Shown: positions 3,946-30,177, numbered from the stretch's first letter. The stretch is DNA of 64,000 nt from Sphingopyxis sp. (GCA_013821905.1 PNJO01000001.1:5989-69988), one strand, 5' to 3'. Notes: generated from the letters alone by a model not told the origin. Numbers and translations are program-made.

Positions 3946-6900
3946 ATGACGATCGCGCCCATCGATCGCAGCATCAGCAAGGTCGGACCCGACAACGGAG
4001 CGTCGGCCCGTCTGTCCGAGCAACGCGCGCTGCCGCGCTACGTCCTCCTCGGCGAACCTGGCATCGGCAAATCGACCGCCTTCGCGCAAGAGGCCGCCGC
4101 CGCAGGCACGGTCCCGGTGCGCGCGGCCGATTTTGTCGAAGGAACCCGTCCGGCTGGTCCGACGCTCTTCATCGATGCGCTCGAGGAATATCGCATCGGC
4201 GAGGACGGGATCGACCGCCTGCGATCGCTCGTCCAGGCGCTCGCCGAGTCGGGGTATGCCGGTTGGCGGATCGCCTGCCGCGCCATCTCTCTCAAACCGC
4301 CCGATGCCCGTCTGCTGACGGAAAAGCTCGGCGCCTACGCCACGCTCCAGCTCGAGCTCCTCGACCGCTTCGAACAACGCGCGCTGCTCGCGGCGCGCGA
4401 TGAAGCCGATCCCTCGGGATTCATCGAGCGCATGCACGGCCTTGGCGCGGGCGCTTTGCTCGGCAACCCCGCGACACTGCTTCTCCTCAAGGACACGATC
4501 GACGCGGCCGCGGTGCCGCTCGACACGCGCGCCGCGCTGTTCGGCGAAGCGGCGCGCCAGATGAGCCATGAGGTCAATCCCGACCATCCCGAACGCGCCG
4601 ATCGTCCGCCGCCGCCGCTGATCGAGGCTGCCGCCGAAGCGGCGTCCCTCATCCTGCTGCTGTCGGGCCGCGACGATCTGTGGATGTATTCGACGAACCC
4701 GCCGCACCCGCATGTCGTTACGCGCGGCGACCTGCTGCCGGCGCGCATCGACACCGAGGCGCTACGCGCTGCGGTCGATACCGCAATGTTCAAGAGCGAC
4801 AGCGTGACCTTCCAGCCGAGCCACCGCGTCATCGCCGAGTTTCTCGCGGGCCGGGCGCTCGCGCGCGCCGTCGTTCCGCCCGATCCGGCGACCCCGGGGC
4901 TGCCGATTTATCGCGCGCTCGCCTTCTGCAACGGCGACAACGACCGCCCGGCGCCTGCGCTCACCGGTGTCTTTGCCTGGTTCGTCGCTGCGCTCGCGCA
5001 GTCGCGCTTGCCCGATCTGGCCGCGCCGCTTCTCGCTATCGACCCCGAGGCGGTTCTGTTGCACGGCGACGCGGCGGCGCTCCCCACCGCGCAGCGCCTA
5101 CGCCTCCTCGATCTTGTTGGCCGCGGCGATCCCTGGTTTCTTGCCGCGGTGCGCGGATCAAGCGCGGTCGGCGGCCTCGCGGGTGAGGACATCGCGCCCG
5201 CGCTTGCCACAATCCTCCTCGATCCTGCCGAAACCGTGCACCGCCAGACGATGGTCCTCGAAGCGCTGGCGACCGGCCGGCGCGTCTCCTCGCTCGCGGA
5301 CGTGATAGAGACGATCGCGGTGACGCCGTCGGCCGACCATTATCGCCGGCGCCGCGCGGTCGACGCCTGGCTCCATATCGTCGGCGACACCCCCGGCGGG
5401 CGGCGGCACCTGCTCGACGCGATCGCCGCGGAGACCCCGGAGACGGCGGCCGATCTTCGTGTCGAGCTCGCCGCCGGCCTGCTGCGCGCTGAAGCTATTG
5501 GCGTCGAGGAGATCCGCACGATCATCGAGGATTATGCGACGACCGGCGATCAGGTGATGGGCTATGCGCGTGTCCTCGGGGTCGCGCTCGCCGACCATCC
5601 GCTACCAGCCCTCTTCGACCGCCCGATCGCCGTGCCATCCGAGCGCGGCGTCGCGCGCTCGTTCGAAATTCGGATGCTTGTCTCGCGCGCCCTCGGGGCG
5701 ACGATCGAGAAAACCGCCGAGCTTGACGCGGACCGCCTGCTATCGTGGCTGTTCAACACCGGCATCGACGACGAGCAACAGGTCGAGAACAAGGTTCAGG
5801 GCGCGATCGCGCATTGGCTCGATCGGGACGCAGGGCATGAAAAGGCGCTGTTCACCGCGCTTCACGCCGCTGTCCAGCAAGGCGACCAGCGGCTGTGGCG
5901 CGCCGACATGGACCTTCGCCGCTTCTCGGGCCGCAAACCCTCCGAGGCGCTGCGCACCGCCGCGATCGAAGCGGTCGAGGCCGAGGCCGACCCTGCGGCG
6001 CTCGCCGCCGCCGCGCAGCTTGGCTATCAACTCGTCCAGCCGTTCGACGAGCATGAAGCGCTCTATTGGCGCCTTTTCTCCGCGATCGAGGGGCAGGACG
6101 CCGCCGCCGACTGGTTCCGGGCGATGACCCTCAGCGAAATTCCCGAATATCAGCGCAAGCGCGCTGGAAAGAGGAAGGACGAGAGGGCGGCGATCGAGGC
6201 GGCCAATGCGAAGGATCGCGCGCTGCTTTCTGGCGATATCGACGGTCTGCGCGACGGGTCGAAGGAAGCCTGGCTCGGTTATGCCGGCGACATCTACAAT
6301 GGCTATCGCGGCAACGACGCGCCGAGCGGCACGGAGCGGGTGACGAACTGGCTTGGCGGCGATGCGATCCTCATCGCGGCGATCCGGGAGGGGTGGCAGC
6401 GCTTGCTTGCCGCGCGGGCCGTATCGCCGCAACTCGTCGGCGCGGCGACGACGCGCACGCAATGGCCGACCTCGGAGCTGATGATCATCGCCTGGGCGGA
6501 GTGGGAGCTGCTCGACGGTCATGCGCTCGACCTCAATGTGCCGCTCGCGCTCCATCTCCTGACCCACTGCTACGCCGGCAACGACAAGGGCGACGAACTG
6601 CGCGAGATCGCGCTTCGTCGTCTCTATGCCGATCCGGCGGGCGCTGACGCGATCCGGGATTTCTGGGTCGGCGCCATCGAAGCGGGCGCCGACGATCTGC
6701 CGCAAGCCCAATATCTCGATCCCAATCAACCCGTTGTCGCCGGCGCCATTGCCGCGCTGCTGCAAAGCGGCATCGCGATGCCGCCTGCCGCAGCGCGCGA
6801 GGCGCTCGAGCTGGCCGCGGTCTCGATGCCTCCCGGCGAGCTTCTCGGTATCGCCGAAGCCGCGCTCGCCGCGCCCGATCCCAAGGGCGCGCGCACGACC

Positions 6901-8118
6901 TGGGCGCTCGCTGCCTTCGCGCTCGATCCCGAACGCCACGAAGGCCTGCTCGCGAGCGATTTGAGCGGCGCCGAAGGCGAGGCCCTGTTCGGGCGTCTCT
7001 GGGACGGGCATCACGGGTTCCTTCTCGCGGCCGCCGCCGACAAGACCGTCGCGCGATCGGAGGCGCTGATCCGGCACGTCGGACCGGGCCAACAGCCACG
7101 CCGCGGTGGGCAAAAAGTGCACAAACTGTCCGAACTGGTTGCAGGCGCGCTCGTCCAGCTCGCGCAGGCCGCGACGCTCGAAGCCAGCGAGGCGCTCGCC
7201 CGCCTGATCGCCGAACCCTCCTTGGCGCATTGGCGCGAGACGCTGCGCCACCACCAGGAGGAACAGAAACGCGTTTGCCGCGAAGCGCGCTTCCTGCCGC
7301 CGCCGCCCGAAGCGGTCGCTTCAGCGCTTGCGGCGGGGCCGCCTGCGAACGCTGCCGACCTGCGCGCGCTCGTGCACCATGTGATCGAGGAGCTGGCGCG
7401 CGATATCCGCGATGGCGACACGTCTCCGTGGCGAAGCTTCTGGAATCGCCCGACGCGGGGGACCAACGGGCCCAAGGTCGAAAATGATTGCCGCGATATC
7501 CTCACCGACCGGCTTCGCGACCGGCTCGAGCGCTATGGCATCCCGGTCAAGCGCATGACCACCGAGGCGCGCAGCGCGAACGATCGGCGCGCCGACATGT
7601 TCCTCATTGGCGATGGCGCGGCGCGGCTGCCGGTCGAGGTCAAGCGCCACTGGAACAAGGAGCTCTGGACGGCGATCGACGATCAGCTCGTCGATTATGC
7701 GCGCTCGGGCGACAGCAGCGGCCACGGGATCTATCTGATCTTCTGGTTCGGGACCCAATGGGCGCTGCCCAGGCTCCCCGATGGCGGGCCGCTTCCGGAG
7801 ACGCCGCAGGCGCTGCAGGCGCTGTTGATCGAGCGGATGCCCGCGACGCTTCGCGAGACCATCGCGGTCGTCGTGCTCGACGTCTCCGAGCCGCCGTCAC
7901 GCGACAAGCCCAAACCGAAAGCGAAAGGAAAACCGGAACCGAGGCTGAAACTTGGATCAACGGCGCGAGCTACGGCGATGCCCACCGCAAAGGTCGCGAA
8001 GGACGCAAAAGCGTCGGCAACGCCCGCCCGCCGGACGAAACCCGCCGCTGTGAAAGCGCCGGTCAAAAGCCCCCGGGACAGTGCGAAGACGGCCGCGCCT
8101 GCCACCCGGAAACGTTGA
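3946..8118 (+). CDS. giant STAND/NACHT-like P-loop NTPase with helical repeat region and C-terminal PD-(D/E)xK nuclease-fold module
   Basis: First ATG is at 3946 (ORF open from TTG 3874). The first ~250 aa carry Walker A GEPGIGKST, Walker-B-like TLFIDALEEY, RIACR and GNPATLLLL. About 900 aa of Ala/Leu-rich helical sequence follow. The C-terminal VENDCRDIL...RRADMFLIG...LPVEVKRHWN is an E/D/ExK nuclease pattern. The last ~70 aa are Lys/Ala/Pro-rich. Confidence 0.8.
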   Translation: MTIAPIDRSISKVGPDNGASARLSEQRALPRYVLLGEPGIGKSTAFAQEAAAAGTVPVRAADFVEGTRPAGPTLFIDALEEYRIGEDGIDRLRSLVQALAESGYAGWRIACRAISLKPPDARLLTEKLGAYATLQLELLDRFEQRALLAARDEADPSGFIERMHGLGAGALLGNPATLLLLKDTIDAAAVPLDTRAALFGEAARQMSHEVNPDHPERADRPPPPLIEAAAEAASLILLLSGRDDLWMYSTNPPHPHVVTRGDLLPARIDTEALRAAVDTAMFKSDSVTFQPSHRVIAEFLAGRALARAVVPPDPATPGLPIYRALAFCNGDNDRPAPALTGVFAWFVAALAQSRLPDLAAPLLAIDPEAVLLHGDAAALPTAQRLRLLDLVGRGDPWFLAAVRGSSAVGGLAGEDIAPALATILLDPAETVHRQTMVLEALATGRRVSSLADVIETIAVTPSADHYRRRRAVDAWLHIVGDTPGGRRHLLDAIAAETPETAADLRVELAAGLLRAEAIGVEEIRTIIEDYATTGDQVMGYARVLGVALADHPLPALFDRPIAVPSERGVARSFEIRMLVSRALGATIEKTAELDADRLLSWLFNTGIDDEQQVENKVQGAIAHWLDRDAGHEKALFTALHAAVQQGDQRLWRADMDLRRFSGRKPSEALRTAAIEAVEAEADPAALAAAAQLGYQLVQPFDEHEALYWRLFSAIEGQDAAADWFRAMTLSEIPEYQRKRAGKRKDERAAIEAANAKDRALLSGDIDGLRDGSKEAWLGYAGDIYNGYRGNDAPSGTERVTNWLGGDAILIAAIREGWQRLLAARAVSPQLVGAATTRTQWPTSELMIIAWAEWELLDGHALDLNVPLALHLLTHCYAGNDKGDELREIALRRLYADPAGADAIRDFWVGAIEAGADDLPQAQYLDPNQPVVAGAIAALLQSGIAMPPAAAREALELAAVSMPPGELLGIAEAALAAPDPKGARTTWALAAFALDPERHEGLLASDLSGAEGEALFGRLWDGHHGFLLAAAADKTVARSEALIRHVGPGQQPRRGGQKVHKLSELVAGALVQLAQAATLEASEALARLIAEPSLAHWRETLRHHQEEQKRVCREARFLPPPPEAVASALAAGPPANAADLRALVHHVIEELARDIRDGDTSPWRSFWNRPTRGTNGPKVENDCRDILTDRLRDRLERYGIPVKRMTTEARSANDRRADMFLIGDGAARLPVEVKRHWNKELWTAIDDQLVDYARSGDSSGHGIYLIFWFGTQWALPRLPDGGPLPETPQALQALLIERMPATLRETIAVVVLDVSEPPSRDKPKPKAKGKPEPRLKLGSTARATAMPTAKVAKDAKASATPARRTKPAAVKAPVKSPRDSAKTAAPATRKR

Positions 8119-8339
8119 TCGGTAGCTTGCCATCAGTCCCGGGCGCAGCGCTGAAGAACAGGTTCGGATTGCGCCAGTATTCGCTGCGTCCGCGGGGCCG
8201 GGATAGCTCCTATAAGCGATGCTCTGTTTGGCCTTCGCCAGTCGGGCGCGTAGCGGCAGGACATCATGCTGTGGGGCTGGATTAGTCTCTGCCTTGGCGA
8301 GGGATTTTCGTTGAGATGCGGCGCTGCTAGAAGGCAGCC

Positions 8340-9167
8340 ATGGCGGAGGGTATCTGCAAACTGACTGGCGAAACCGGCCCGCTCGTGAAGGCGCACATCC
8401 TGCCTAAGGCGCTCACGTCGCCAGCGGTCAAGGGACAGTCCTTCGCGCAGGCTGGTTCAAACTATGCACCGCGCAGGCGCCGCGATAGCTGGTATGATCC
8501 CGATCTCGTAACGCGCGCGGGCGAAGATATACTGGCGCGCTATGACAGCTGGGCGATCGAGGAATTGCGTCGGCACCGGCTGGTGTGGAGCGGCTGGGGC
8601 GGGGACCGGACACTCGCCGAGAACGAAATGCTCCTCGTACCGGGCATGGACGGCATCGGCTTTCGCAAGATCGATACGATCGACCAGCACCGCCTTCGCC
8701 TGTTTCTCCTCAGCATCTTATGGCGCGCCGCGGTCAGCAAGATGCACGAGTTCAGTGAAATTCGCATGCTCCCCAACGAGCGCCGCCGGCTGACGCATAT
8801 GGTGCGCAACGGCCGCGTCGAACCCTTGTCCTTCTTTCCCGTCATGCTGTTCCAGCTCTCGAGCCGCGGCGAAATTCATAATCTCAGCCCGATCGCGCAG
8901 CACAAGCGACGTGATGTGATGGATCCGGACAAAGGCACGATTCCGATCTTCCGCTTCTATTTCGACGGATTGATCGTCCATTTTCACCGCAAGGATCGCG
9001 CGAAAGACGTGGAAGCGATGGGCCCGATGATGGTGGGCCGCGGCAAGGAGCTTGTCGTTGGCCTCAGACCTTATGACGGATCGTGGCAGGAGGAAAATCT
9101 GGAAGTGTTAAAGGCCGAAGCCGAGGAGCGATGGCCCGGCAAGCTGGCGCGAATCTACAGCTCTTGA
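8340..9167 (+). CDS. hypothetical protein (N-terminal Cys...His-Ile-Leu-Pro motif, weakly HNH-like)
   Basis: 275-aa ORF with normal composition. It starts MAEGICKLTGETGPLVKAHILPKAL. It is convergent with the 1474-aa gene, leaving a 36-nt gap. No confident family assignment. Confidence 0.6.
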   Translation: MAEGICKLTGETGPLVKAHILPKALTSPAVKGQSFAQAGSNYAPRRRRDSWYDPDLVTRAGEDILARYDSWAIEELRRHRLVWSGWGGDRTLAENEMLLVPGMDGIGFRKIDTIDQHRLRLFLLSILWRAAVSKMHEFSEIRMLPNERRRLTHMVRNGRVEPLSFFPVMLFQLSSRGEIHNLSPIAQHKRRDVMDPDKGTIPIFRFYFDGLIVHFHRKDRAKDVEAMGPMMVGRGKELVVGLRPYDGSWQEENLEVLKAEAEERWPGKLARIYSS

Positions 9168-9203: not shown

Positions 9204-12200
9204 TTAATCGTCCGGCCGCCGTGCCCGGACCCGGACACGCTTGAGGTTCGATTTCGTGAGGTCGTTGAGGCGCCGTGCCAGTTGCTGCTCGGCAAAATAG
9301 GTGAGTTGTGGGTCGATATTGATCTGATCGATAATGCGCAGCGGGTCATCGCGCATATAGGTCGGCTCGGGTTCGCAGACATCGAGTGCAAACTCCATCG
9401 TTACGAGCGAGGGGCGCTGCCGAAACTGCTCGGCTGCGGCCGCCGCATCGAGCCATACCCGCCGCACTTCATAAAGCTTGTCGCGCAAGTGCCGGTCGCG
9501 TTCGGTTTCGAGAAGGCCGGTCAGCAGGTGCGGCCCATCGGGCATCCAGCCGATCGCTTCAACAAGAGCTTCCTTCCGCTCGGCATCCGCTGCCGCGAAC
9601 TGCGCCATCAGATAGGGCTTGATCGTCGTGTGACCGATCCGGAGCTCGACACAGGCGGCGCGATAGGCATATCGATCGCCGCTACCCGGGCGGTCCTCGT
9701 CGAGGGCATCGACCATGGCCTCGAGCGCGCGCGAATCGACCGCCCGCACTGCGCGCGCCATGCTGCGCCGGCGATCGGGGTAGCCGATCCAGGCTTGGCG
9801 AAACGCCTGCGTCGCGCGATCCTTGTCGATCCGCGCCAGCGTCGCGATCGCATCGGGCTGAACGTTGGTGATAAAGTCGGGCTCGGAAAAAGCGCGTTCG
9901 AGCAAGATGTTGAGCGCCTTCACCTCGTCCTTGTCGACGAGCTGCTCGACGAAATCATCGGCCGACCAGAATCCACGCCCGCCGACGCGTTCCCCGATGG
10001 CCCAAAGCGCCTCGCTCGCGCCACCCTGGCCAAGCCGAATGACAAGCGCCTCGGAATCATAACTCTTCCAGCTCTTCGCATTCCCGAGCCGAGCGAGATA
10101 GGTATCGAAGATCGCCCGTGCCTCGGGCGACTTGTCCTTAAGGAGCGTATTGAGCGCACCGAGGCGGCCCGCTTCGTCGTCGTCGGTCGCGAGCCGCGCA
10201 AGCGCCCTCGCGGTGAGGTCGGGATCGCTCGGGCCGGCGACCGCGGCGGCGTTGAGAAGCATCGCCTCGATTTTGCTCCCCGGAGCACGGCCTCTCAGGC
10301 TTTCGAGCAGAAAGGCCTGATCGCCGGCCTCTTCATATTCGGGGAGCAGGCGGAGCGCGAAGGCGACATCCTCCTCGGTGTCGCGCTTTGTCAACGCCAT
10401 CAGCCGGGGTCGCCACCGCTCCGGCTCCACGGCCAGCAGGACGCGCCACAGGCTGAGCCGCACTTCGGTGGCATCGCCTTCACTCGTCCCGACCGAAGTC
10501 AGTTCTTCGAGCCGCGCCACAACCGGCGGGGTTGGCGCGAAAATGCTCATGGCGATGCCAGCGCGCGACTTGCCAAGATCGTCGTGTGACAGCGTGTGGA
10601 GCACCAAGCTCTCGTAATCGCTGCCGCCGATCCGCCGCAGGATGCGCCGGACTGCTACCTGCCGTTCGTCACTGTTTCTGTTGACGTGATCCATGGCGCG
10701 AGCGCAAATCCGTGCCGCGAAATCGGAACCCCGATAGGCTTCGAATAACGGGTCATGGCGCGGGTCGAGCGTCAGGCTCCCGAGCAGCGCGACGAGCGAG
10801 GCAAAGGGATCGCGCCGACCCTCGCCAAAGGGCGCACCCATGATATCGGCGAGTTTCGCCAACAGGTGCGAAACGAGCGCGTCATCGACGCGGTCCTCGG
10901 CGCGGGAAAACAGCGCGGCAAGCTCCCCGCCGGTCGAATCGCCGGCCTCGCGCCACTGCTGGAGCGCGGTTCGCGTGCGATCTCCATCATAGTCGAACAG
11001 GCGGTCCATCCAGTCGCGACCTGGAGGGATAGGCGCGAGCGGTGGAAGTGCTTCGATATAGTCGAGCACCGCCCCTGGATCGATCTTGGCCCAGGTCGCG
11101 ACCGCCTTGCTGGCCCAAGCACGGTCCGAAAGCGCGTGCAGTGCCAGCACGCCGGCATCCCGTTCGTCGCCGAAGCGGTCGATACACTCGATCAGGACCG
11201 ACTGCCGTTCGGGGGCGATCACTCCGAAAAGCCGGTCGCGGGTTCGCGACCAGATGGCGTTGCCGCGCTCCACGTCGAGCGACTTCAGGAAATAGGCCGC
11301 AATGCGATATTCGTCGGCACTTCTCTCGCTCTCGACGAGATCGGTCAACCAGTCGGGGGCGTCGCAGACGATGGTGCGCAGCGCCGCATCCATGGCATCG
11401 AAGCGCTCCGAAACGTAGCGATCGCTCTCGCGCTCGGCCGACATCGTGCAATAGTCGGTCCAGAGTCTGTCGCGATGCGCATGGAAGGGCCAGCCATTTG
11501 CAAGGGTCAGCGCGACGTCGATGCTATGCTCGCTCGCATGCGCCCACAGCTCGTCGAGAAGGACATCGCGCTTGGCACGATCGTCGCCCATGACTTGGCG
11601 GAGAGCCGCGACGATGTGAATCGCCATATGGCCGTCGTCGGCGCCGAGGCGCTTGATGCGGGCCACCAGCACCGGAATGATACGAGGGCCGATCGTCGGC
11701 AAGAGCGACCGGTAGAGTTCCCAAGGCCCCGTCGATTCCTCGTCTTCAAACCCGGCGAGGAACGCCGCAATCTCGTCGGCGCGTGCAGCGTCGGCGCTGA
11801 TCTGCCACACCACGTCCATGAGGAGGAAGCCAAGGCCTGCGAGCGTATCCGAAGCCTTTTCGCGCGCGGCGTTCAGCGTCTTGACGATGTCGATCAGGTC
11901 GGCGGCACTGCGTAAACGCTGCCCGAAATCAAAGGCCAGGGCTTCGGAAATGGCCCAAGTGAGCAGCCGATCATGCGCAAAACTCCAGCGCGTCCCGAGG
12001 TTCGACAACCAACCCGCGGCAAGCAGTTCCTCCAGTTCACCGGTCGTGAAACCGAGCGCCGCCATCTCGTCGTCGGTGGTATAGGCGCGCCGCGTCTCGA
12101 CAAGGAGGCGCGCGAGCGCCTTCAGTCGAACCGTTGCATAGGCTCCGGCGCGATCCCGTGCGCGCGTCCAGAAGGCTTCGAGCACTCGGTACTCGTTCTG

Positions 12201-13628
12201 CGGGTCCCAGCCGGGCATCTCGAGCGCGAGCCGCGAATAAATGCCGCAGAGAACGGGGCGGTGAAGCATTGCGCGGATATTGCGCGGCACGAGACCCGCA
12301 TCGACGCCGCGCCGCTCGAGCGCCTTGAACAACTGGATCGGCGTGAAGTCGCCGACCCTGTGGCTCGGAAAGGCCGCGCTGTTGCCGTCCCCCGCCACGC
12401 CAACCGGATATTCCGCGACGAGCGCTAGCCCCGCGCCAAGCCCGCCTTCGAGGTCGATGGCGTCCAGATCGGCAGCATTGCGGCAGCCTTCCCAAAGGAT
12501 CGCGATCCGATCCGCGGTCCCGCATTGCCTTTGCCCTGTCGCGCCGAGCAACGGCACTTGCACGGGTTCCGCCAGTTGCAGACCGTCCACGGCAATGATG
12601 CGCTGCAGCTGGCGTTCGAGGTCGGCGCGAGATGATGCGCGCACCAGCACAGCAGGATGGCGCGCGTGCAGCAGCGCCGATGCGGTCCGGTAGAGGCTCC
12701 AAGATTTTCCCTGGCCCGAGGCGCCAACGACAATCGTGATCGCCGCCTCGGGAACAGCAAGAGGCTCGCGAACATCGAGCGCGGGATCATAGTCGCGCTT
12801 GCCAAGCGATGCCGCAAGCCTGTCGAGCATTCGGTTGAGCACCGTGTCGGCCGCCGCGTCGTCGCTACGCGCGAGACCGAGCCGGGCGCGGAGGTCGTCG
12901 ACAGATATGACGGCATCATTCGTCTTCGCGCGCCCGATTAGATAGCCAACCAGTTGGTCGAGCCTGTCCGTAGCCTTTTCGGAATATGCGAGCGATCGTT
13001 GAAGCCATGCCACAACGCCGGCCTGCGCGCGGGCGAGCGAGAGCGGCTCGGCAGCCACGAAGCGGGCGAAAAAGGAGGCAAGGTCGCGTTCGAACGTTTC
13101 GCTCGATGCGCCGGTGGCGCCATGGATGGGGCGGCAACGCGCGGCGATCGCGCGCATGTCGGGATCGTCGAGCCATGCTTGGCGCGGCCCGTTCCGTCCC
13201 GCCTCGACAAGGCGGCGCGCGAGCGCGGATGCGGGCCTGCTCACCCCGTTCGTTGTCTGAAGGATATAAGAGGAGCACGCGCGATCGCTATGCGCGCGGT
13301 AAAGATCAGGCAGGACCTTGTGGATGAGATCGCCGCGTCCCACCGCAGTGCTGCGATGCTTGAACTGATAGGCGATGCGTCCTTGGCCGGTCTGGATCGT
13401 GAGGTCCGCCCCCGCACGCGGTTCGATCACAGCAACGATCGTATCGGGGTCGACCTTGCTCCCCGATCGCGCGAAGTGCGCGCCGAGAAGCGCATCGAGC
13501 GAGCCTGCCAACTGGTAGAGAAAGCCATAGATTGCAGCCGACCCGGCTTGCGACAAGTGGGGTTCCGACTGCGAGCCCGCACCCGCCGCCGGAGCTTCGC
13601 TATTGCGTGATGCCAGCCCGCTGCTCAT
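9204..13628 (-). CDS. giant protein: N-terminal DUF4297/Cap4-like nuclease-fold domain, P-loop NTPase, C-terminal HEAT/ARM-type repeats
   Basis: 1474 aa, with RBS GAAGGTG upstream of ATG 13628. The N-terminus reads IYGFLYQ...VIEPRAGADL...IAYQFKH...YILQTTNG, the GxxYQ / D / QxK pattern I recall for DUF4297. Walker A VVGASGQGKSWS lies at aa ~301-309. The C-terminal ~900 aa contain repeated helical units such as RLGALNTLLKDKSPEARAIF and RAVRAVDSRALEAMVDALDEDR. Confidence 0.85.
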   Translation of the reverse strand: MSSGLASRNSEAPAAGAGSQSEPHLSQAGSAAIYGFLYQLAGSLDALLGAHFARSGSKVDPDTIVAVIEPRAGADLTIQTGQGRIAYQFKHRSTAVGRGDLIHKVLPDLYRAHSDRACSSYILQTTNGVSRPASALARRLVEAGRNGPRQAWLDDPDMRAIAARCRPIHGATGASSETFERDLASFFARFVAAEPLSLARAQAGVVAWLQRSLAYSEKATDRLDQLVGYLIGRAKTNDAVISVDDLRARLGLARSDDAAADTVLNRMLDRLAASLGKRDYDPALDVREPLAVPEAAITIVVGASGQGKSWSLYRTASALLHARHPAVLVRASSRADLERQLQRIIAVDGLQLAEPVQVPLLGATGQRQCGTADRIAILWEGCRNAADLDAIDLEGGLGAGLALVAEYPVGVAGDGNSAAFPSHRVGDFTPIQLFKALERRGVDAGLVPRNIRAMLHRPVLCGIYSRLALEMPGWDPQNEYRVLEAFWTRARDRAGAYATVRLKALARLLVETRRAYTTDDEMAALGFTTGELEELLAAGWLSNLGTRWSFAHDRLLTWAISEALAFDFGQRLRSAADLIDIVKTLNAAREKASDTLAGLGFLLMDVVWQISADAARADEIAAFLAGFEDEESTGPWELYRSLLPTIGPRIIPVLVARIKRLGADDGHMAIHIVAALRQVMGDDRAKRDVLLDELWAHASEHSIDVALTLANGWPFHAHRDRLWTDYCTMSAERESDRYVSERFDAMDAALRTIVCDAPDWLTDLVESERSADEYRIAAYFLKSLDVERGNAIWSRTRDRLFGVIAPERQSVLIECIDRFGDERDAGVLALHALSDRAWASKAVATWAKIDPGAVLDYIEALPPLAPIPPGRDWMDRLFDYDGDRTRTALQQWREAGDSTGGELAALFSRAEDRVDDALVSHLLAKLADIMGAPFGEGRRDPFASLVALLGSLTLDPRHDPLFEAYRGSDFAARICARAMDHVNRNSDERQVAVRRILRRIGGSDYESLVLHTLSHDDLGKSRAGIAMSIFAPTPPVVARLEELTSVGTSEGDATEVRLSLWRVLLAVEPERWRPRLMALTKRDTEEDVAFALRLLPEYEEAGDQAFLLESLRGRAPGSKIEAMLLNAAAVAGPSDPDLTARALARLATDDDEAGRLGALNTLLKDKSPEARAIFDTYLARLGNAKSWKSYDSEALVIRLGQGGASEALWAIGERVGGRGFWSADDFVEQLVDKDEVKALNILLERAFSEPDFITNVQPDAIATLARIDKDRATQAFRQAWIGYPDRRRSMARAVRAVDSRALEAMVDALDEDRPGSGDRYAYRAACVELRIGHTTIKPYLMAQFAAADAERKEALVEAIGWMPDGPHLLTGLLETERDRHLRDKLYEVRRVWLDAAAAAEQFRQRPSLVTMEFALDVCEPEPTYMRDDPLRIIDQINIDPQLTYFAEQQLARRLNDLTKSNLKRVRVRARRPDD

Positions 13629-13663
13629 TCGGGCACCTTCGGGAATTTGGTGCGCTTTGACAA

Positions 13664-14266
13664 TCAGCCATCCTCGCCCGGTTCGGCGCCTGGCGGCGGC
13701 TTAAGAGCGACGAGCGCGTCGATTGCGTCACGGTCCGCCGCACAAAAGAGGATCGGAACCATTGCCACTTGCAGATGCCGCGCGAGGCCGAGCCGATGAT
13801 TGCCGCCCCGCACGCTGAGCCCCTTCGCCTGCGGCATGAGTACCGGCGGCGTTACCGATCCGCCGCTTTCGAGATGCGCGACGAGCGTTGCGGTCTTGTT
13901 GCGATAGCGCTTCGAGAAAGGCGTTCCGATCCGGCGCGAGTACTCGACAAGGACCTCGTGCAACAGGTCACTCTCTACCCAGCCTATCTCGATATCGGGA
14001 AAGGTGCGGGCGAAGGATTCAGCATCATGGTCATCCATCGACCGATAGAAATGCGCGGGCTCCAAGTCCCAATGCAGCGCGACACGCGGCCATTGCTCAT
14101 CGGGCAGATGGAAGATGTCCATGCCGCGTCGAAGCCGATGCTGGTTGGCGATTGCTTCATCGAGCCCGATCTCGCCTTGGGCCACCCGCAACGCAGCTTG
14201 CATGGAAAGCCCGTGGCGTGCCGCGAGTTCAGCGGCTTTGGCCAAAATCGCCTTCACGTCACACAC
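13664..14266 (-). CDS. small protein with C-terminal ParB/Srx-like (GxHR) domain
   Basis: 200 aa. TPPVLMPQAKGLSVRGGNHRLGLARHLQVAMVPILF resembles the ParB N-terminal/sulfiredoxin-fold core (DGxHR). The GTG start overlaps the stop of the upstream gene (GTGTGTGA). The stop lies 35 nt before the giant gene's start. Confidence 0.7.
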   Translation of the reverse strand: MCDVKAILAKAAELAARHGLSMQAALRVAQGEIGLDEAIANQHRLRRGMDIFHLPDEQWPRVALHWDLEPAHFYRSMDDHDAESFARTFPDIEIGWVESDLLHEVLVEYSRRIGTPFSKRYRNKTATLVAHLESGGSVTPPVLMPQAKGLSVRGGNHRLGLARHLQVAMVPILFCAADRDAIDALVALKPPPGAEPGEDG

Positions 14267-15170
14267 CGCTGGCTTTCGGTGCGACGATGCAGATCACGCT
14301 CTGCAGGTCGGCCGTCGCCCCCGACAGATCGGCCTCGAGCTGGTCGGGATGTTTCAGCACCCCGTCGGGATCGTAAACCAGGGCAATCATATGGTTGACA
14401 TTGGGATTGGCACCATAATGCGCCCGATCGACGATCAGCTCTTCCAGGATTTTCTTGTCCTTGCCGGGGCGTGCAAATTTGAGCTCGATCATCAGCCGTT
14501 GCGGCTTGAGATAGAATTCGCAGCGCGTACTGCTCCCGCCGAGCGACGGGTTCGGCTCTTCGATCCGGATGTCCGGGAAGAAGCCCGCGAGGATCGCGTG
14601 GAACAGATATTGGCAGTCCCATTCGTCCTGGAGCGTCCAGATCGTCCCGCCATGGGGATGATAGCGAAGCGCCCGCGCCGAGGCATGGAAACGGCGCGCG
14701 AGCCGCTCGACGATCTGAAGGTCGCTTGTCTGCGCCGGGTTGAACTTCGGATCAGGGCGTAACGCGATGACATGGTCGACCGCCGCAAGCGTATGGTTCA
14801 CCTGCTTCAAGGTAGAGTGTATGATGTCGGGATAGCCGATCCCGGTGCTGCCCGCGTGAAAGTGCTCGCCCGCCGCCACCACATCGTGGCGCATCTTGTC
14901 GACGAAAGCGCGATAATCTTCGAGCGCGTCCGCGACCGCCGCCGGCGAGCCGTAATTCGAACCGGGAATCGCCCGGTCGGCGACGAAGTCCTGCGTATAT
15001 TCCTTCAGGCTGAGAATGACGCTTTTGACCGTGGAAAACCATGCTGCGCCTTGCGCCTGCGGGCCATCCTCCCGCATCTCCGCCATGAGATTGTCGAAGT
15101 CCTGACGGGCCGCCCGCCGCGCCTTGTAAAGATAGTCCAGCGCATCGACCGCCCATTGCATCTCGTCCAA
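14259..15170 (-). CDS. protein with helical N-terminal half and C-terminal PD-(D/E)xK nuclease-fold module
   Basis: 303 aa. TTG start is preceded by GGGAGA with a 7-nt spacer; an in-frame ATG sits 3 codons later. The C-terminal QDEWDCQYLFHAIL...STRCEFYLKPQRLMIELKF is an E / (D->E) / ExK pattern. First gene of a three-gene - strand operon. Confidence 0.7.
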   Translation of the reverse strand: MDEMQWAVDALDYLYKARRAARQDFDNLMAEMREDGPQAQGAAWFSTVKSVILSLKEYTQDFVADRAIPGSNYGSPAAVADALEDYRAFVDKMRHDVVAAGEHFHAGSTGIGYPDIIHSTLKQVNHTLAAVDHVIALRPDPKFNPAQTSDLQIVERLARRFHASARALRYHPHGGTIWTLQDEWDCQYLFHAILAGFFPDIRIEEPNPSLGGSSTRCEFYLKPQRLMIELKFARPGKDKKILEELIVDRAHYGANPNVNHMIALVYDPDGVLKHPDQLEADLSGATADLQSVICIVAPKASGV

Positions 15171-15247: not shown

Positions 15248-16363
15248 ATGATCGACCGCGCGCTCGACGCTATAACCCTGTCCGATATCGAGGATCTTGT
15301 CCGCTTCAAACGCAGCGAAGGAAGGACACTCGATTTCAAGGCGACGTTCCCCGATGCAGGTCACAAAGGCGTGCGCGATTTCCTCGCCGATGTCACCGCC
15401 TTCGCAAACAGCGGCGGCGGCGACCTCGTGATCGGTGTAACCGAGGACGACAATGGCGACGCCGCCGAGGTGCTCGGGATATCGCGCGACAATCTCGACG
15501 AGAATTTGCGGCGCATCGAGGATCAACTTCGCAGCTGCGTCGATCCGCGCGTGCCCGACTTTCGCATTCATCGCGTCGATCTGCCGGACGGCAAGGTTGT
15601 TCTTGTCCTCCGCGTCGGCGCGAGCCTGATCGCGCCGCACCGCGTGACCTTCGATCGCAGCAGCCGTTTCTACCGCCGCACCAACAGGGCGAATTCCGAT
15701 ATGAGCACCGCCGAGATCCGCCAAGCTTTCGCCGCATCCGAAGACACCCCGCGGAAAATCCGCGACCTCCACAGGCAGGCGCTTGCCGCTGCGGAAGGCG
15801 CCGATATGCCTGTTCGCTTGCGCGGCGAGCCGGCCGCGATTCTCACGATCGCGCCGCTCTCCGTGCTCCGCGAGGCGCGAAGCCTTCCCGTCGGACGCGA
15901 CGATGTCGTTTTTCCGCCGCGCATGACCGGCGCGATCAATACCGTCGTCGGACTCGACAGTGTAATTGTTCATTCTCCCGTCGATGACGGGTCCGGCGCC
16001 GTCCGAACTTTCTCGATCAACCATCGCCGGGGTTATATCGACCATGCTTGGACGATCGGGCACGAGAAGGATGGAACGACTTACGTCTGGCAGGACAATT
16101 TCGTCGTCAAGATCGAGGAGGCCGCGCGCAGCACGCTCGCGCGGCTTCGAGCTCACGGGATTGAGGGTCCGTGGATCGTTATGGCGACGCTCATCCGTAT
16201 CAAGGGTGCGCGTCTGTTCCTCGGCGATCACCAACTCAGCGAGCCTGCGTGGCAAGATCCCGCCTTTCTCGGCGAAATCATCGACGACCGGCTCGACAAG
16301 GACGCCCTCAAGCCTTTCGTCGACGGATTTTGGCGCGTCTTCGGCGTCGATGCGGCCCAATGA
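15248..16363 (+). CDS. AlbA_2 / Schlafen-like (divergent AAA) domain protein
   Basis: 371 aa. EGRTLDFKATFP...VRDFLADVTAFANSGGGDLVIGVTEDDNGDA matches the ExxxLEFK...AFANxxGGxLxIGV signature of the AlbA_2 domain. Divergent from the operon at 15170, with a 77-bp intergenic region. Confidence 0.8.
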   Translation: MIDRALDAITLSDIEDLVRFKRSEGRTLDFKATFPDAGHKGVRDFLADVTAFANSGGGDLVIGVTEDDNGDAAEVLGISRDNLDENLRRIEDQLRSCVDPRVPDFRIHRVDLPDGKVVLVLRVGASLIAPHRVTFDRSSRFYRRTNRANSDMSTAEIRQAFAASEDTPRKIRDLHRQALAAAEGADMPVRLRGEPAAILTIAPLSVLREARSLPVGRDDVVFPPRMTGAINTVVGLDSVIVHSPVDDGSGAVRTFSINHRRGYIDHAWTIGHEKDGTTYVWQDNFVVKIEEAARSTLARLRAHGIEGPWIVMATLIRIKGARLFLGDHQLSEPAWQDPAFLGEIIDDRLDKDALKPFVDGFWRVFGVDAAQ

Positions 16364-16446
16364 AGGTTTTTGTCGCTCCCGCGTCGCAGATGGCGGCAGC
16401 GCATCCTTCGCTATGGTCGGCATCCGACCGCTGCTAGGCTCATCGC

Positions 16447-17630
16447 ATGGACGAAGAGAATCTTATTTTCCTCAGCTATGCGAGCCCCGATCGCGATGCC
16501 GTCATGGGCTTCCACGCGTCGCTACAAGCTGCAGGCTACAATGTCTGGATGGACCGCTTTCGCCTCAAGGGCGGCCAAGCATGGGACGTCGAGGTCAAGC
16601 GTGCGATGCGTAAGGCAACGATCATCGTCGTGTTCCTCTCCTCGCACTCGGTCGATCGCCGCGGCTATGCGCAACGCGAAGTGAAGATCGCGCTGGAACA
16701 GCTCAAGGACCGCCTCGTCGACGACATTTATCTGATCCCGGTGATGCTCGAGCCCGGTCTGGCGGTTCCTGACCAACTCGCGGACATTCAGGCGGTCGGT
16801 CTGGACGGTCAGGACGCCGGTACCGCGCTCAAGGACGCGATCGACGAGCAGCTCTCGCGCCTCGGCGCCAAGATCGCGCAGGTGCAGGCGGACGCCAATA
16901 TCCAGTGGACCGACAGCGTCTTCGAGGACAAATGGGATGGACTGCCCGGCTATGATGTGAGCTACCATCTGCCGCGCTTCACCTCGCGCGACTATCCGGC
17001 GTCGCGGAAATCACCGACGTCCTGCGCGGCTGGCTCCAAGGCCAGGTCATGGGCCAGCGAACCGTCAAGTTCGACCAGTCGCCTGACCTCTACAGCTTCG
17101 CCGAAACCCGTTTCAGCCGCCAGAACAGCTGGGAGGCCTCCTATGGCGAACCGCAGATCCGGGGACGCGTCCTCAGCATCGCCTTCTCAATCTGGTGGTA
17201 CGGCGCCAAGGCGGCCCATCCGAACCACCAGTATCAGACCTTCGCCTTCACGCTCGATCCGGTGACCCGGATCAGTGAACTTCGCGAGATCTTTGTCGAT
17301 CCCGATGCAGGGTTCAAGCTCGTCCAAAGCGAGTCTCGGCGTCTCCTTCTCGCTCTCGATCTGGATGGCGACATGCTCCCTCCCGATCAGATCGCGAGCG
17401 GAACAGAGACCTGGGACGACTTCAGCGATTTTCTGTTCACTGCGGACGGTCTCGACATATTCTTCCCACCATATCAGGTCGCCGCCTACGCCTATGGGCC
17501 GCAGCATGTCCGGATCGCCTACGACCTCCTTACCGACCTTCTTCTCCCGCTCTATGCGCAGCTGCTCGACGCGACCTATCTGGGTGCCGCCCATCGTAAT
17601 CCGCCATGGGACGACACAGCGTCCGCCTGA
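16447..17630 (+). pseudogene. TIR-domain protein fused to DUF4163/DUF3298 (RsiV-like) domain, reading frame broken near 16996-17001
   Basis: ORF 16447..17265 begins with a TIR pattern: LIFLSYASPDRD...GYNVWMDRFRLKGGQAW...ATIIVVFLSSHSV...YAQREVKIAL. After ...YHLPRFTSRDYP it runs into low-complexity text. A frame shifted by one nucleotide continues GVAEITDVLRGWLQGQVMGQRTV and then shows DUF3298-like motifs (WWYGAKAAHPNHQYQTFAFTLDP, GLDIFFPPYQVAAYAYGPQHVRIAY) up to 17630. Confidence 0.7.
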
Positions 17631-17657
17631 TCGCGTACAGTCAGGGAGGAATAACCG

Positions 17658-19151
17658 TTAGGCGGTCAGGCGCGTGCGCAGGTGGATCAGGCCGCGGAGG
17701 CCATCCTTGAACGCGCCTCTCGCTGCCGAAATGGACCCCGGATGGCGATCGGCGAGATAGCCATGCATCAACCACTGCCGATATTCAGGCGATGCCTTTT
17801 CGGACAGGATCGGATCGATCCCGGCTCGCTCGCAGGCGGAGAGCAGCCCTTCGAACTCCGAGATCGAACAGACATGGTAGGGATAGCGTCGCAGCAGCTC
17901 GGGGTCGAGGCGCCGCCGGACGAACTCGGCATCGACGAGCCCCGCGATGGTCGTGTGAATATACGGCCCAAAATAAAACCATTCATAGAAGGTCACGACG
18001 ACCGGATGGATCGGGCGGCCGTCATCCTGCCAATGCGGATAATGGCCGGCCATCGCATCGGTCAGCGTCGCATAAAGCTGTCCGATATTTTTCGCGAGCC
18101 GCTCGAGGGCTTTCGCAAGCGGGGGCTGTTCGGTGATCTCGCTCTGCGAGGCGATATCGAGCCGCGCCATCTTGCACTCGACGAACAGGGTGCCCGTCGC
18201 ATCGCTCATGATCCAGTCGACGCTTTTGCATTCGGGCGTGCCCCATATCGCTTCGCCGTGCCGCTCAAGCCAGTCTCCGCCGAGATGCGCCGCGACGCTC
18301 CCGACATAGGCTTCGAACGCATCCCCCACGGCATCGCCAAACTGGTCGTCCGAGCGAATCAGATCGAAGAAGAGCCCATCGGTGAGACGCCGCACGAGCA
18401 TCGTCGGGATCGGGCACATCACCGAGTCCGGGTTACCTGCATGGAGAAGGGGATATTCGCGCATCGGATTGAAGCTGAAGGCCCAGTTGACCCCATAGCT
18501 CTGGCGCGCTGCCAATTCGGCGCGCAGGTCGCCCGCCGATTTGGCGATGCGGTCGCGCAGTGCCTTCACCGGCTCATGGATCGACGGGTCGGCCTCCGCG
18601 AGAAAGGCAAAGGGGGGTGCCGGTCCCTCGGCAAGTTCCTGGATCAGTAGCATGATGATCTGAAAAAGCTCATCGGTTGACATGCCGAACAAGGCCTCGA
18701 CCATCGGCGCGACCCGCGGGTGCGCGTAGAGCTTGTGGAAGCGCGCGACTTCGCCAGTGGCGAGCGGCGACTGGTAACTGAATTGCTGAAAGGCGAGGCG
18801 CGACAGCTGCAGCAGGATGTCGGTCGGGCGATTGTCGTGCGCCCCCCAATAGCGATCCTCAAGCTTTTGGATCATCGACATTGTTGTGAATGCCGGCTTC
18901 GCGCTGTTGAAGGGTTTTCCCGGCCGCAGCTGACAATTGAGAACGATTTCACGGGCCATCAGCTCGACCAGATGGCCATGGAGCTGCGACCGCATCGGCG
19001 ACAGCCCGAGGCTCAGCGGAATATTCTCGAGTCGCGGCGGGAGGTCATGGTCCCAGCCGATGCGTTGCATATAGGCGTAGACCGTGCCGAGCGCGCTCCA
19101 CAGGTGAAATCCGCGCAGGTAATTTCGTAGCGGCTTGTAATGCGCGTACAT
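17658..19151 (-). CDS. hypothetical protein with PD-(D/E)xK-like motif
   Basis: The ORF is open to 19478, but the first 109 codons are Arg-rich. The likely start is ATG 19151 (MYAHYKPLRNY). It contains FGDAVGDAFEAYVGS...SVDWIMSDATGTLFVECKMARL, a D...ExK pattern. Convergent with the TIR gene. Confidence 0.65.
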   Translation of the reverse strand: MYAHYKPLRNYLRGFHLWSALGTVYAYMQRIGWDHDLPPRLENIPLSLGLSPMRSQLHGHLVELMAREIVLNCQLRPGKPFNSAKPAFTTMSMIQKLEDRYWGAHDNRPTDILLQLSRLAFQQFSYQSPLATGEVARFHKLYAHPRVAPMVEALFGMSTDELFQIIMLLIQELAEGPAPPFAFLAEADPSIHEPVKALRDRIAKSAGDLRAELAARQSYGVNWAFSFNPMREYPLLHAGNPDSVMCPIPTMLVRRLTDGLFFDLIRSDDQFGDAVGDAFEAYVGSVAAHLGGDWLERHGEAIWGTPECKSVDWIMSDATGTLFVECKMARLDIASQSEITEQPPLAKALERLAKNIGQLYATLTDAMAGHYPHWQDDGRPIHPVVVTFYEWFYFGPYIHTTIAGLVDAEFVRRRLDPELLRRYPYHVCSISEFEGLLSACERAGIDPILSEKASPEYRQWLMHGYLADRHPGSISAARGAFKDGLRGLIHLRTRLTA

Positions 19152-19487
19152 CCGGCAACGCTGCCATTGCACCGAGCTGCCTGCAACCGCGCTTCGCGAC
19201 CATTCCGCAAGTCCTGCCCGTCTGCGTCTTACATTATACTCAGCTATCGCCGTGAGGCGGCGTCCCGTCAGTCTGCGTTCGAGGTGATGCGATGAACAAA
19301 TGGTCCCGGTGCATCGATCAATTCTTCCTCGCCGAGAACCGGCTTCCGCCATTGACGCGCCTGTTCCTGGTCGTCGCGATTGCGTTCGTTGCCGCGCTCG
19401 CTGGCGACCTCGTGAACATCGCCGGTTATACCGTCGGCTTGTTCGTCCGCTGACCGGGCTGAGCCCGAGCGTGTGCATAATTTGAAG

Positions 19488-20246
19488 TCACCGCGCCGCG
19501 ACCTTTCGCATGATCTCGAAATAGCGCGCATTGATTTCACCCTCCTCGTCGCCGATCGGGGCACTTTGGCGATAAAGATAGGAAAGCTTCGGAAAGTAGG
19601 GTGCGCGCTGGCTCGTCACACGAAACTGCAGATCGGCGGCATGCCGCTTGGTCTTCTCGACGACGAAGGTCGCGAGCGTGATCCTGTGCCCGTCGACAAT
19701 ATCCCAGACCTGTCCCTCGATACGCCCGTCGCGCAACTGCCCCTCAACTTCCAGCCGCGAGAAGATATGATATTGCCGTAACCCCTCGCTGATGATCTCC
19801 CCCTGAGCCGCCCCGTCATAGGTGCGTAGCGCGAGTTTCACCGGCTCGCCTTCGACCGATGGATCAAGACCTTCGGGCGAGCTGGCCTCGTCGACTGCCC
19901 CGCTCTCGCTCGACCAAACGCCGGTAAACGCCTTCGAGACATATATTTCGTCCGCCGCGTCCCGCGCGAGCTTCGGTGCCTCCGAGCGAAAGCTGTTGAT
20001 CACTGCCGGGAATTGCAGTGCGCCGAACACCGCTGCCGCCGCCCAGCCCGAAAAGGCGAAGAGCGGCCTCTGGTAAAACGCTGCGGGTTGCGCAGGCGCG
20101 GGTGGAGCGCCATCGCCCACCGGCCGTTTGCGCTTGGGTTTGGAATAGGGTTTGATAGATACGTCCTTCGGCGCAAAGTTAATCGAACGAAGAACAACTC
20201 CGCCAGTAAATAATTCTGGCGTCGGGCAAGGAGAAGCGCCCTTCAT
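19488..20246 (-). CDS. hypothetical protein with one predicted TM helix
   Basis: Ordinary composition. Hydrophobic stretch RPLFAFSGWAAAAVFGALQFPAVI, followed by a beta-rich-looking domain. Start uncertain (ATG 20267 or 20246). ATG 20246 shares the palindromic CATG with the start of the divergent RES gene. Confidence 0.5.
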   Translation of the reverse strand: MKGASPCPTPELFTGGVVLRSINFAPKDVSIKPYSKPKRKRPVGDGAPPAPAQPAAFYQRPLFAFSGWAAAAVFGALQFPAVINSFRSEAPKLARDAADEIYVSKAFTGVWSSESGAVDEASSPEGLDPSVEGEPVKLALRTYDGAAQGEIISEGLRQYHIFSRLEVEGQLRDGRIEGQVWDIVDGHRITLATFVVEKTKRHAADLQFRVTSQRAPYFPKLSYLYRQSAPIGDEEGEINARYFEIMRKVAAR

Positions 20247-29974: not shown

Positions 29975-30147
29975 GATGCCGATACCTTCCTGGAGAAAGT
30001 TATGGGCCGCAGCATTCACCTCGCAGGTGAATACGTTATCGCGCGCCCATAACTTTCTCCTGCCTTTCTGCTCTGTGGTCGCGGGCCAAAGGACCGCGGA
30101 GTACCATTCGGATTTGAGGGAGATGCCCAGCGAGGCCGACAAAAGGA

Positions 30148-30177
30148 GAGGGCGGTTGCGTGCGCGCAACCGCCCTC
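30148..30177 (-). terminator. 13-bp-stem hairpin downstream of the ParB-family gene
   Basis: GAGGGCGGTTGCG (30148-30160) pairs with CGCAACCGCCCTC (30165-30177) around a 4-nt loop. On the - strand it is followed by TCCTTTTGTC. It shares its core with the palindrome at 27697. Confidence 0.55.

Follow-up and report, generated by a model that had tools for sequence, protein, structure and literature searches.

A 64,000-nucleotide stretch of a Sphingopyxis sp. genome (GCA_013821905.1, PNJO01000001.1:5989-69988; hereafter the window, at its full length) carries three tightly packed minus-strand genes, which encode a nuclease-fold protein (gene 1), a small ParB/Srx-like protein (gene 2) and a giant protein with a nuclease-like N-terminus, a P-loop and a HEAT-like C-terminal end (gene 3), and which a preliminary description had proposed to form a single three-gene defence system. 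The question raised by this locus is whether such an arrangement reflects one system or several that happen to lie side by side. Unrelated single-gene systems accumulate back-to-back in defence islands, and the comparative data point in this direction: the three are probably autonomous conflict genes co-packed in one lineage within a defence island, namely an Avs-like receptor-nuclease, a bAgaN-type nuclease and an Osa-like ParB/Srx protein. The earlier statement that the trio corresponds to no named system agrees with PADLOC and NCBIfam, which name none, and a literature search on Helical-REase, EruA and DpnII-MboI plus STAND returned nothing relevant.

The distribution of the three families was examined by comparing their profile hidden Markov models (HMMs) with all open reading frames (ORFs) of 71 loci and of the window. 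By these profiles and by tblastn, the three genes occur together only in the window and in two further loci, L009 and L010, which blastn identifies as the same island (89–94% identical, 92–94% at the DNA level, with collinearity extending beyond 17 kb) and which are, therefore, not independent observations of the trio. Neither gene 1 nor gene 2 was found near the seven other gene 3 loci (tblastn at E ≤ 10 and family HMMs); genes 2 and 3 were absent from all 55 loci of the gene 1 family, 12 of them with full-length and 43 with partial homologues; and genes 1 and 3 were absent from the nine other loci of the gene 2 family (L066–L074, the backbone of L074 being that of L069), where L066–L071 were assessed by HMM and L072–L074 by called or annotated genes. 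A weak match between gene 1 and the C-terminus of the gene 3 relative P0008 (E = 0.058) is unsupported, as Pfam calls this region HEAT_2. No DNA of the trio was found among the PLSDB plasmids. The trio is thus limited to one island lineage, with no co-occurrence in divergent genomes by either BLAST or profile HMM, which is the outcome that the preliminary description had itself named as telling against a single system; that claim is, therefore, not sustained.

The physical layout from which the claim arose holds up. The three minus-strand frames match the ORF listing exactly, and the motifs quoted earlier for each protein are all there, among the most conserved positions of the respective families. 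Genes 1 and 2 share 8 nt (GTGTGTGA in the minus-strand reading, the 3' end of gene 1 being ...GGT GTG TGA), and this overlap is one of two possible readings, because the gene calls of the sister loci place the start of gene 2 one GTG further on, yielding a 197-aa protein that starts 1 nt past the gene 1 stop; the overlap is present in the sequence, and the alternative start abuts the stop with a 1-nt gap. Under either start the coupling of the two genes is tight. The gene 2 stop is followed, after the 35-nt spacer that had been described, by the ATG of gene 3, which is preceded by an AAGGTG Shine-Dalgarno sequence, and homologues that begin with MDEM or MDKM support TTG as the start codon of gene 1. 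No terminator-like site was seen on the coding (minus) strand at the gene junctions, in a promoter/terminator scan that performed at chance level and is uninformative; the three genes are possibly co-transcribed. All three are intact in the sister locus of 92–94% identity, and non-synonymous codon changes relative to that locus do not outnumber the synonymous ones (21 versus 31 in gene 1, 17 versus 17 in gene 2, 94 versus 183 in gene 3); they are real, functional genes under purifying selection.

The gene 3 protein has the tripartite architecture of Avs proteins, that is, an effector, a STAND NTPase and a repeat sensor, and on this point the family alignment, Foldseek and the PDB profile search agree, in keeping with the order of nuclease, P-loop STAND module and HEAT-like C-terminus that had been proposed. 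The family is tiny: a word-seeded search recovered only eight clusters in 5.8e9 proteins. Across eight homologues, at identities down to 25%, residues G35, Q39, E69, D75, Q88-x-K90 and T125 of the N-terminal part are invariant, and those up to K90 make up a PD-(D/E)xK signature; invariant too are S304-G305-x-G307-K308 of the Walker A motif (GASGQGKS) and the MHD-like A-H552-D553-R-L-L, and the Walker B acid is conserved as E or D (ILWEG with ~E380 here, DD/DG in the relatives P0007 and P0008). In an AlphaFold2 (AF2) model of aa 1-600, built on the eight-sequence alignment (predicted local distance difference test, pLDDT, 72), AHDRLL opens a helix that follows immediately on a beta-hairpin, which is the position of the histidine in the winged-helix MHD motif of STAND proteins. 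Foldseek searches with this model retrieved NLRP14/7/9/3, Cdc6/Orc1, CED-4, NRC2, NAIP and RPP1 (prob 0.85–1.0), together with LmuA (9NXX), Cap4 (6WAN/6WAM) and HamA (8ZUE) at prob 0.97–1.0, the latter with low template-modelling (TM) scores from a multi-domain model of pLDDT 72.

Sequence profiles give fainter signals. Pfam Mrr_cat falls below its cut-off at aa 47-139 (0.0027–0.028), nSTAND_NTPase5 and AAA_22 match aa 294-348 below threshold, and the relatives of gene 3 carry weak traces of the LmuA HMM (0.008) and sub-significant P-loop traces of the Avs2 HMM (E 0.007–0.06). Gene 3 matches no PADLOC family at E ≤ 0.1 and does not match Pfam NACHT, for which its relative P0002 scores 0.064 and 13.5 bits against a cut-off of 26.7. 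Pfam DUF4297 matched none of the isolated N-terminal 260 aa of seven family members at E ≤ 10; the DUF4297 likeness advanced in the preliminary description, therefore, fails by sequence and may hold at the level of the fold, with Cap4, LmuA and HamA among the structural matches. The roughly 900 aa of HEAT-like repeats that had been described are likewise borne out in part: the family profile matches alphaRep, a HEAT-type protein, in the PDB (7e-8, profile positions 1226-1404), and Pfam HEAT_2 is found in P0008 (5e-10) and P0007 (3.5e-4), which covers the last ~180–250 residues; BLAST alignments of P0007 and P0008 reach only ~aa 1-1050 of gene 3. By analogy, gene 3, the leading player of the three, would be a single-gene Avs-like (NLR-type) receptor, rare and unrecognised by PADLOC, NCBIfam and Pfam, the analogy being one of architecture and fold, since the PADLOC Avs and NACHT HMMs miss it. 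As a separate observation, the P-loop region of the relative P0004 (aa 270-333, locus L004) matches PADLOC PDC-M54A at 1.3e-5 over 64 aa at the equivalent position; the PDC-M54A profile spans ~1,620-1,660 positions, and the match may hint at a distant relationship with a candidate system that is still uncharacterised.

The seven other places in which gene 3 relatives occur (L001–L008, with L002 and L003 being the same place seen twice, the L003 copy with transposase debris; 25–46% identity) show them with upstream intergenic regions of their own and with unrelated neighbours, mostly defence genes or genes of mobile genetic elements. The relative in L001 lies near an AAA_15/21 pair, a radical-SAM gene, an Mrr/NA-iREase1 protein and a HEPN-RES protein; that in L004 is within a Tn7-like element; that in L005 adjoins AAA_22 and SMC genes; that in L007 is situated between an integrase and type I restriction-modification genes; and that in L008 is on a short contig. 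In L006 (751-10176), P0007 is encoded 117 nt downstream of, and on the same strand as, a Lamassu-like trio of SIR2_2, a 211-aa protein and SMC_N/AAA_23, which is another case of separate defence units being tightly packed.

The nuclease fold attributed to gene 1 is borne out by a Pfam match of aa 153-298 to the DpnII-MboI restriction endonuclease family (PF18742, 2.1e-38). In PADLOC, only the Aga_Helical-REase models match, at 4.7e-25 and over the nuclease part, and a profile of 20 homologues detects one solved relative in the PDB, EcbAgaN (5e-6). The segments E183-W-D185-C-Q187-Y-L, R216-C-E218-F and E229-L-K231 are invariant in these 20 homologues. The family comprises 37 full-length clusters that include the helical N-terminal domain, at ~41–47% identity, and was traced to the 55 genome loci mentioned above. 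In the 12 with full-length homologues the gene stands alone, without a conserved neighbour and often with flanking genes on the opposite strand; a conserved small partner downstream of gene 1 homologues was not found, the recurrent ORFs of ~100 aa being mutually unrelated. Homologues adjoin a T4 coupling protein and a DUF3363 relaxase in L011 and L018/19 and integrases in L012 and L013–16, and others are found beside DnaE2. Integrative and conjugative elements (ICEs) carry gene 1 as stand-alone cargo.

Gene 2 has no match in Pfam, PADLOC or NCBIfam, and a word-seeded search yielded only three near-identical relatives. An exhaustive phmmer search retrieved 161 remote representative clusters, mostly of ~180–210 aa, with a conserved core of W66-D67, D78, T-P-P (140-141) and G-G-x-H-R (154-158). 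The motif G154-G155-N-H157-R158...A162 is the counterpart of the NTP-binding motif known as GxxR in ParB and GGCHR in Srx; G154-G155-x-H157-R158 varies little or not at all among 50 homologues, R158 being strictly invariant, and aligns to the GERR motif of Spo0J (1VZ0) in an alignment that is by itself non-significant (E = 0.68). Pfam ParB_N matches two of the 50 family members, weakly. The AF2 model built on the family alignment (pLDDT 95.9) gave Osa (4O7K/4OVB) as the first Foldseek match in the PDB (prob 0.97–0.98, 169–170 columns, TM 0.39–0.41), followed by PadC, Noc, ParB, sulfiredoxin (Srx) and KorB, and ParB/Sulfiredoxin proteins in a viral library. The predicted ParB/Srx fold, already proposed in the preliminary description, is sound, because the model and the PDB and viral matches concur; the likeness to Osa is confined to structure, since a search of the PDB sequences with the family profile fails to recover Osa at E ≤ 10.

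Members of the gene 2 family are dispersed over mobile elements. Two ICE fragments, L066 and L067, carry a relative that overlaps a RepA-like gene by 4 nt, and relatives also occur on nine large plasmids (Burkholderia/Caballeronia, Pseudomonas and Comamonas), surrounded by hypothetical genes and with genes for replication and translesion polymerases nearby. A metagenome scan with a 14-sequence alignment of the family gave only two loci, and gene 2 is absent from the phage collections. In the ICE fragments (L066 5541-12009, L067 427-2417) the gene lies directly after one for a 476-aa RepA-like protein (RP-C N-terminal plus DnaA_N domains), with TrbI upstream and, downstream, a 495-aa protein of unknown function, a DUF7146-Toprim primase-like gene and a large HTH_ParB protein. 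On the chromosome CP021330.1 (L073), the relative P0051 shares 4 nt with the 3' end of an OLD-family ATPase-TOPRIM gene. At this place (5986-8585), a 672-aa protein with an OLD-family ABC-ATPase and a TOPRIM domain (PADLOC AriA/Old/GajA, ~1e-26) is followed by the 194-aa P0051, which is 41% identical to gene 2, and the pair, flanked by housekeeping-type genes, may be an undescribed two-gene system. The overlaps in L073 and in L066/L067 indicate that the gene 2 family is often translationally coupled behind a DNA enzyme. The family is an undescribed and unannotated ParB/Srx family of ~190 aa, carried by ICEs and large plasmids. Error-prone polymerase genes (dnaE2/imuB or umuDC) recur no more than a few kb away from members of both the gene 1 and the gene 2 families (L013–L016, L009, L069/L074, L070 and L071), and this proximity may point to a zone of integration or cargo that these elements have in common.

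Positions of the three genes, their domains and the neighbouring genes in the window
Feature	Position	Strand	Remarks
Gene 1	14259..15170	-	303 aa, TTG start; ORF listing
Gene 1, N-terminal helical domain	~aa 1-150	-	Conserved across homologues
Gene 1, nuclease domain (aa 153-298)	14277..14714	-	Invariant D185, E218, E229-x-K231; Pfam
Gene 2	13664..14266	-	200 aa, GTG start (or 197 aa from GTG at 14257)
Gene 2, ParB/Srx core (~aa 92-186)	13709..13993	-	T-P140-P141, G154-G155-N-H157-R158...A162
Gene 3	9204..13628	-	1474 aa, ATG start; ORF listing
Gene 3, PD-(D/E)xK nuclease (~aa 27-135)	13224..13550	-	G35-x3-Q39, E69-P-x2-G-x-D75, Q88-x-K90
Gene 3, STAND NTPase module (~aa 295-570)	11919..12746	-	Walker A/B, helical domain, winged helix
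Gene 3, C-terminal region (~aa 600-1474)	9207..11831	-	Presumed ligand sensor; HEAT/alphaRep-like at C-terminal end
EruA-like NACHT giant, 1414 aa	3874-8118	+	NCBIfam antiphage_EruA full length, 5.9e-211, 704 bits against 1000-bit equivalog cut-off
275-aa gene, unknown function	8340-9167		Between NACHT giant and gene 3; also in L009
Schlafen/AlbA_2 gene	15248-16363	+	
TIR gene	16447-17265	+	
GapS1-family-like protein	17658-19478	-	NCBIfam 5.5e-24, below cut-off
Two RES-domain proteins and MobA/MobL-type relaxase	2848-3723; 20152-21357; 27734-30169	-; +; -	

The setting of the trio is, as had been noted, that of a defence island, with EruA-like NACHT, GapS1-like, TIR, Schlafen/AlbA_2 and RES genes on its flanks. 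With the MobA/MobL relaxase ~13 kb from the trio and a GC content slightly lower over ~14–27 kb of the window, in which no tRNA genes were found, the island is probably cargo of a mobilisable element. The NACHT giant is convergent with gene 3, and the idea that the two giants are paralogues was rejected, there being no BLASTP similarity between them; of the other gene 3 loci, only L009 has the convergent 275-aa gene that separates the two. L009 is otherwise collinear with the window, the sole difference being the absence of a 2.4-kb segment (15269-17656) that carries the Schlafen and TIR genes and is present in the window and in L010; in the cassette-free L009 the GapS1-like gene abuts the upstream region of gene 1. 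The cassette may be a separate two-gene module. The longest GapS1-like ORF is 606 aa in the window, and its L009 counterpart is called at 497 aa.

Several observations weigh against treating the three genes as independent. The 8-nt overlap (or 1-nt gap) and the 35-nt spacer are tighter than mere juxtaposition requires, and this packing, with no terminator-like site, suggests a single transcript and leaves room for cooperation specific to this lineage. The coupling of P0051 to an OLD ATPase-nuclease means that the gene 2 family can partner defence enzymes. Sampling is thin, with seven independent gene 3 loci, from a word-seeded search, and nine gene 2 loci. The individual assignments have their own soft points, too: gene 3 is not matched by the PADLOC Avs or NACHT HMMs, the model of its aa 1-600 is moderate (pLDDT 72) and its matches have low TM-scores, and gene 2 matches Osa at a TM of ~0.4, with undetectable sequence similarity. 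In the rival reading as a single system, the trio would be an integrated sensor-effector system with a Menshen-like logic, in which the STAND giant senses, the ParB/Srx protein acts as transducer or loader and the restriction-type nuclease is a second effector. Its shared strand, (near-)overlapping genes, 35-nt spacer and junctions without a terminator-like site would fit, as would the preservation of all three genes under purifying selection in the sister islands and the L073 pair of an OLD ATPase-nuclease with a gene 2 relative, and Menshen shows that trios of ParB, NTPase and nuclease exist (PMC12065111). However, no two of the families co-occur outside one ~90%-identical island, the gene 3 relatives at 39–46% identity are full length and partnerless with all catalytic residues in place, the gene 1 and gene 2 families each have different contexts of their own, and PADLOC matches to Menshen or to other multi-gene systems are absent, which makes such a system improbable.

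A smaller unit, consisting of genes 1 and 2 as a nuclease with its ParB/Srx regulator, loader or immunity protein, which landed upstream of an independent gene 3, is unlikely. The overlapping or abutting stop and start codons of the two genes speak for it, as do the 4-nt overlaps by which gene 2 relatives follow the OLD-family nuclease gene in L073 (41% identity) and the gene for the DNA-binding RepA-like protein in L066/L067; yet the pairing is seen in one lineage only, a gene 2 family ORF is present in none of the 12 full-length and none of the 43 partial loci of the gene 1 family, and the genes on either side of gene 1 homologues are typically unrelated or on the opposite strand. The geometry of translational coupling and the L073 pair keep both the integrated system and the two-gene unit alive, but neither is backed by the comparative data. 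It is also rather unlikely, slightly more so than the two-gene unit, that the gene 2 family is a new accessory subunit, used again and again with one DNA-targeting conflict enzyme or another, in which case the trio would be a young composite where an NTP-gated ParB/Srx clamp or nuclease modulates the neighbouring nuclease or nucleases. The places of the family, behind an OLD-family ATPase-nuclease in L073, behind a RepA-like initiator in ICEs and, in the window, between a bAgaN-type nuclease and an Avs-like STAND protein, would fit such a role. The notion that gene 3 is a housekeeping scaffold of HEAT repeats and an ATPase, with an inactive nuclease-like N-terminus, could draw on its lack of a significant Pfam, NCBIfam or PADLOC assignment. 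It is rejected as very improbable because the family is rare and patchy (eight clusters in 5.8e9 proteins), always lies in variable neighbourhoods of defence genes or mobile elements, and retains the E/D...QxK residues as invariant in relatives at 25% identity; the NLR-like and Cap4/LmuA-like fold does not fit a housekeeping role either.

If the three genes act independently, as we favour, each would have a mechanism of its own. In gene 3, by analogy with Avs3 and Avs7, the C-terminal helical/HEAT region would bind an invader (phage) protein; with autoinhibition released, the STAND NTPase would exchange ADP for ATP and oligomerise (K308, ~E380, H552-D553), and the nuclease domains (E69, D75, Q88-x-K90) would be brought together, so that indiscriminate DNA cutting would abort the infection. 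The triggers, oligomerisation, DNA cleavage and defence phenotype we infer, by analogy, from homologues and fold. In gene 1, the conserved helical N-terminal domain would restrain the nuclease or sense its trigger. Gene 2 would be an NTP-binding, DNA-directed factor acting against incoming or rival mobile DNA, in the manner of Osa-like fertility inhibition, or, alternatively, an accessory of adjacent DNA enzymes.

Read in this way, the locus illustrates that tight packing in a defence island, even with overlapping stop and start codons, does not make a system: the three seemingly plausible partners are distributed phylogenetically in entirely separate ways. It also brings to light what would be a very rare clade of Avs-like receptors missed by current annotation, combining a Cap4/LmuA-like nuclease, a STAND module and a HEAT-type sensor, which would extend the known set of prokaryotic pattern-recognition receptors and supply a new sensor domain, whose ligand could be looked for. 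Gene 2, in turn, leads to a family of Osa-like ParB/Srx proteins that is so far without annotation and resides on ICEs and plasmids, and whose OLD-paired member is perhaps a small defence or anti-plasmid module.

Comparison with described systems places each gene beside a different counterpart. Menshen, which consists of the ParB-DUF262 sensor NsnA, the ATPase NsnB and the nuclease NsnC (PMC12065111), resembles the trio in having a ParB-fold protein, an NTPase and a nuclease encoded in three adjacent genes. It differs in that gene 2 is not a DUF262 protein (no Pfam match), that the STAND NTPase of gene 3 is fused to a nuclease of its own instead of being an ABC-type transducer, and that genes 1-3 do not co-vary phylogenetically, and Menshen was rejected as an identification, none of the three proteins having a PADLOC match to NsnA, NsnB or NsnC. 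The counterpart of gene 2 is Osa, an IncW fertility-inhibition factor that targets coupling proteins (PMC5696584). With Osa/FiwA, gene 2 shares a stand-alone format of ~190 aa, in which helical N-terminal elements accompany a ParB/Srx core, and its family shares carriage on ICEs and large or conjugative plasmids; in contrast, the sequences have no detectable similarity (TM ~0.4), and gene 2 lies in a defence island and has a nuclease-bearing gene on either side, while its L073 relative is paired with an OLD nuclease.

Gene 1 is best compared with bAgaN, a PD-(D/E)xK DNase that is switched on by long-B Argonautes and causes collateral DNA degradation (PMC10620215). The layout is the same, a helical N-terminal part followed by a C-terminal DpnII/MboI-type nuclease, and the nuclease domains are homologous, whereas the N-terminal domain of gene 1 comes from a different family, so that the nuclease domain alone matches. 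BPAN, the pair of a long-B pAgo and bAgaN, was rejected, as gene 1 has no adjacent Argonaute, and neither do the full-length homologues at their 12 loci; no PIWI/Argonaute gene was found among the scanned flanking genes, the neighbours of gene 1 being gene 2 and the Schlafen/AlbA_2 gene. For gene 3, the reference is provided by SeAvs3 and SeAvs7, in which target binding by the C-terminal sensor leads to NTPase-mediated tetramerisation and to DNA cleavage by the Cap4 domain (PMC13581612). Gene 3 differs from the known Avs proteins in escaping the PADLOC Avs1-5 HMMs, in a sensor end that is HEAT/alphaRep-like and not TPR, and in the size of its family, which has eight clusters, and it resembles the NACHT modules of NLRP proteins at the fold level only. 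With Avs it shares a single polypeptide of ~1,500 aa, a putative N-terminal PD-(D/E)xK nuclease that may be Cap4/LmuA-like, a STAND module with the winged-helix histidine, a helical-repeat sensor, and stand-alone occurrence in defence islands.

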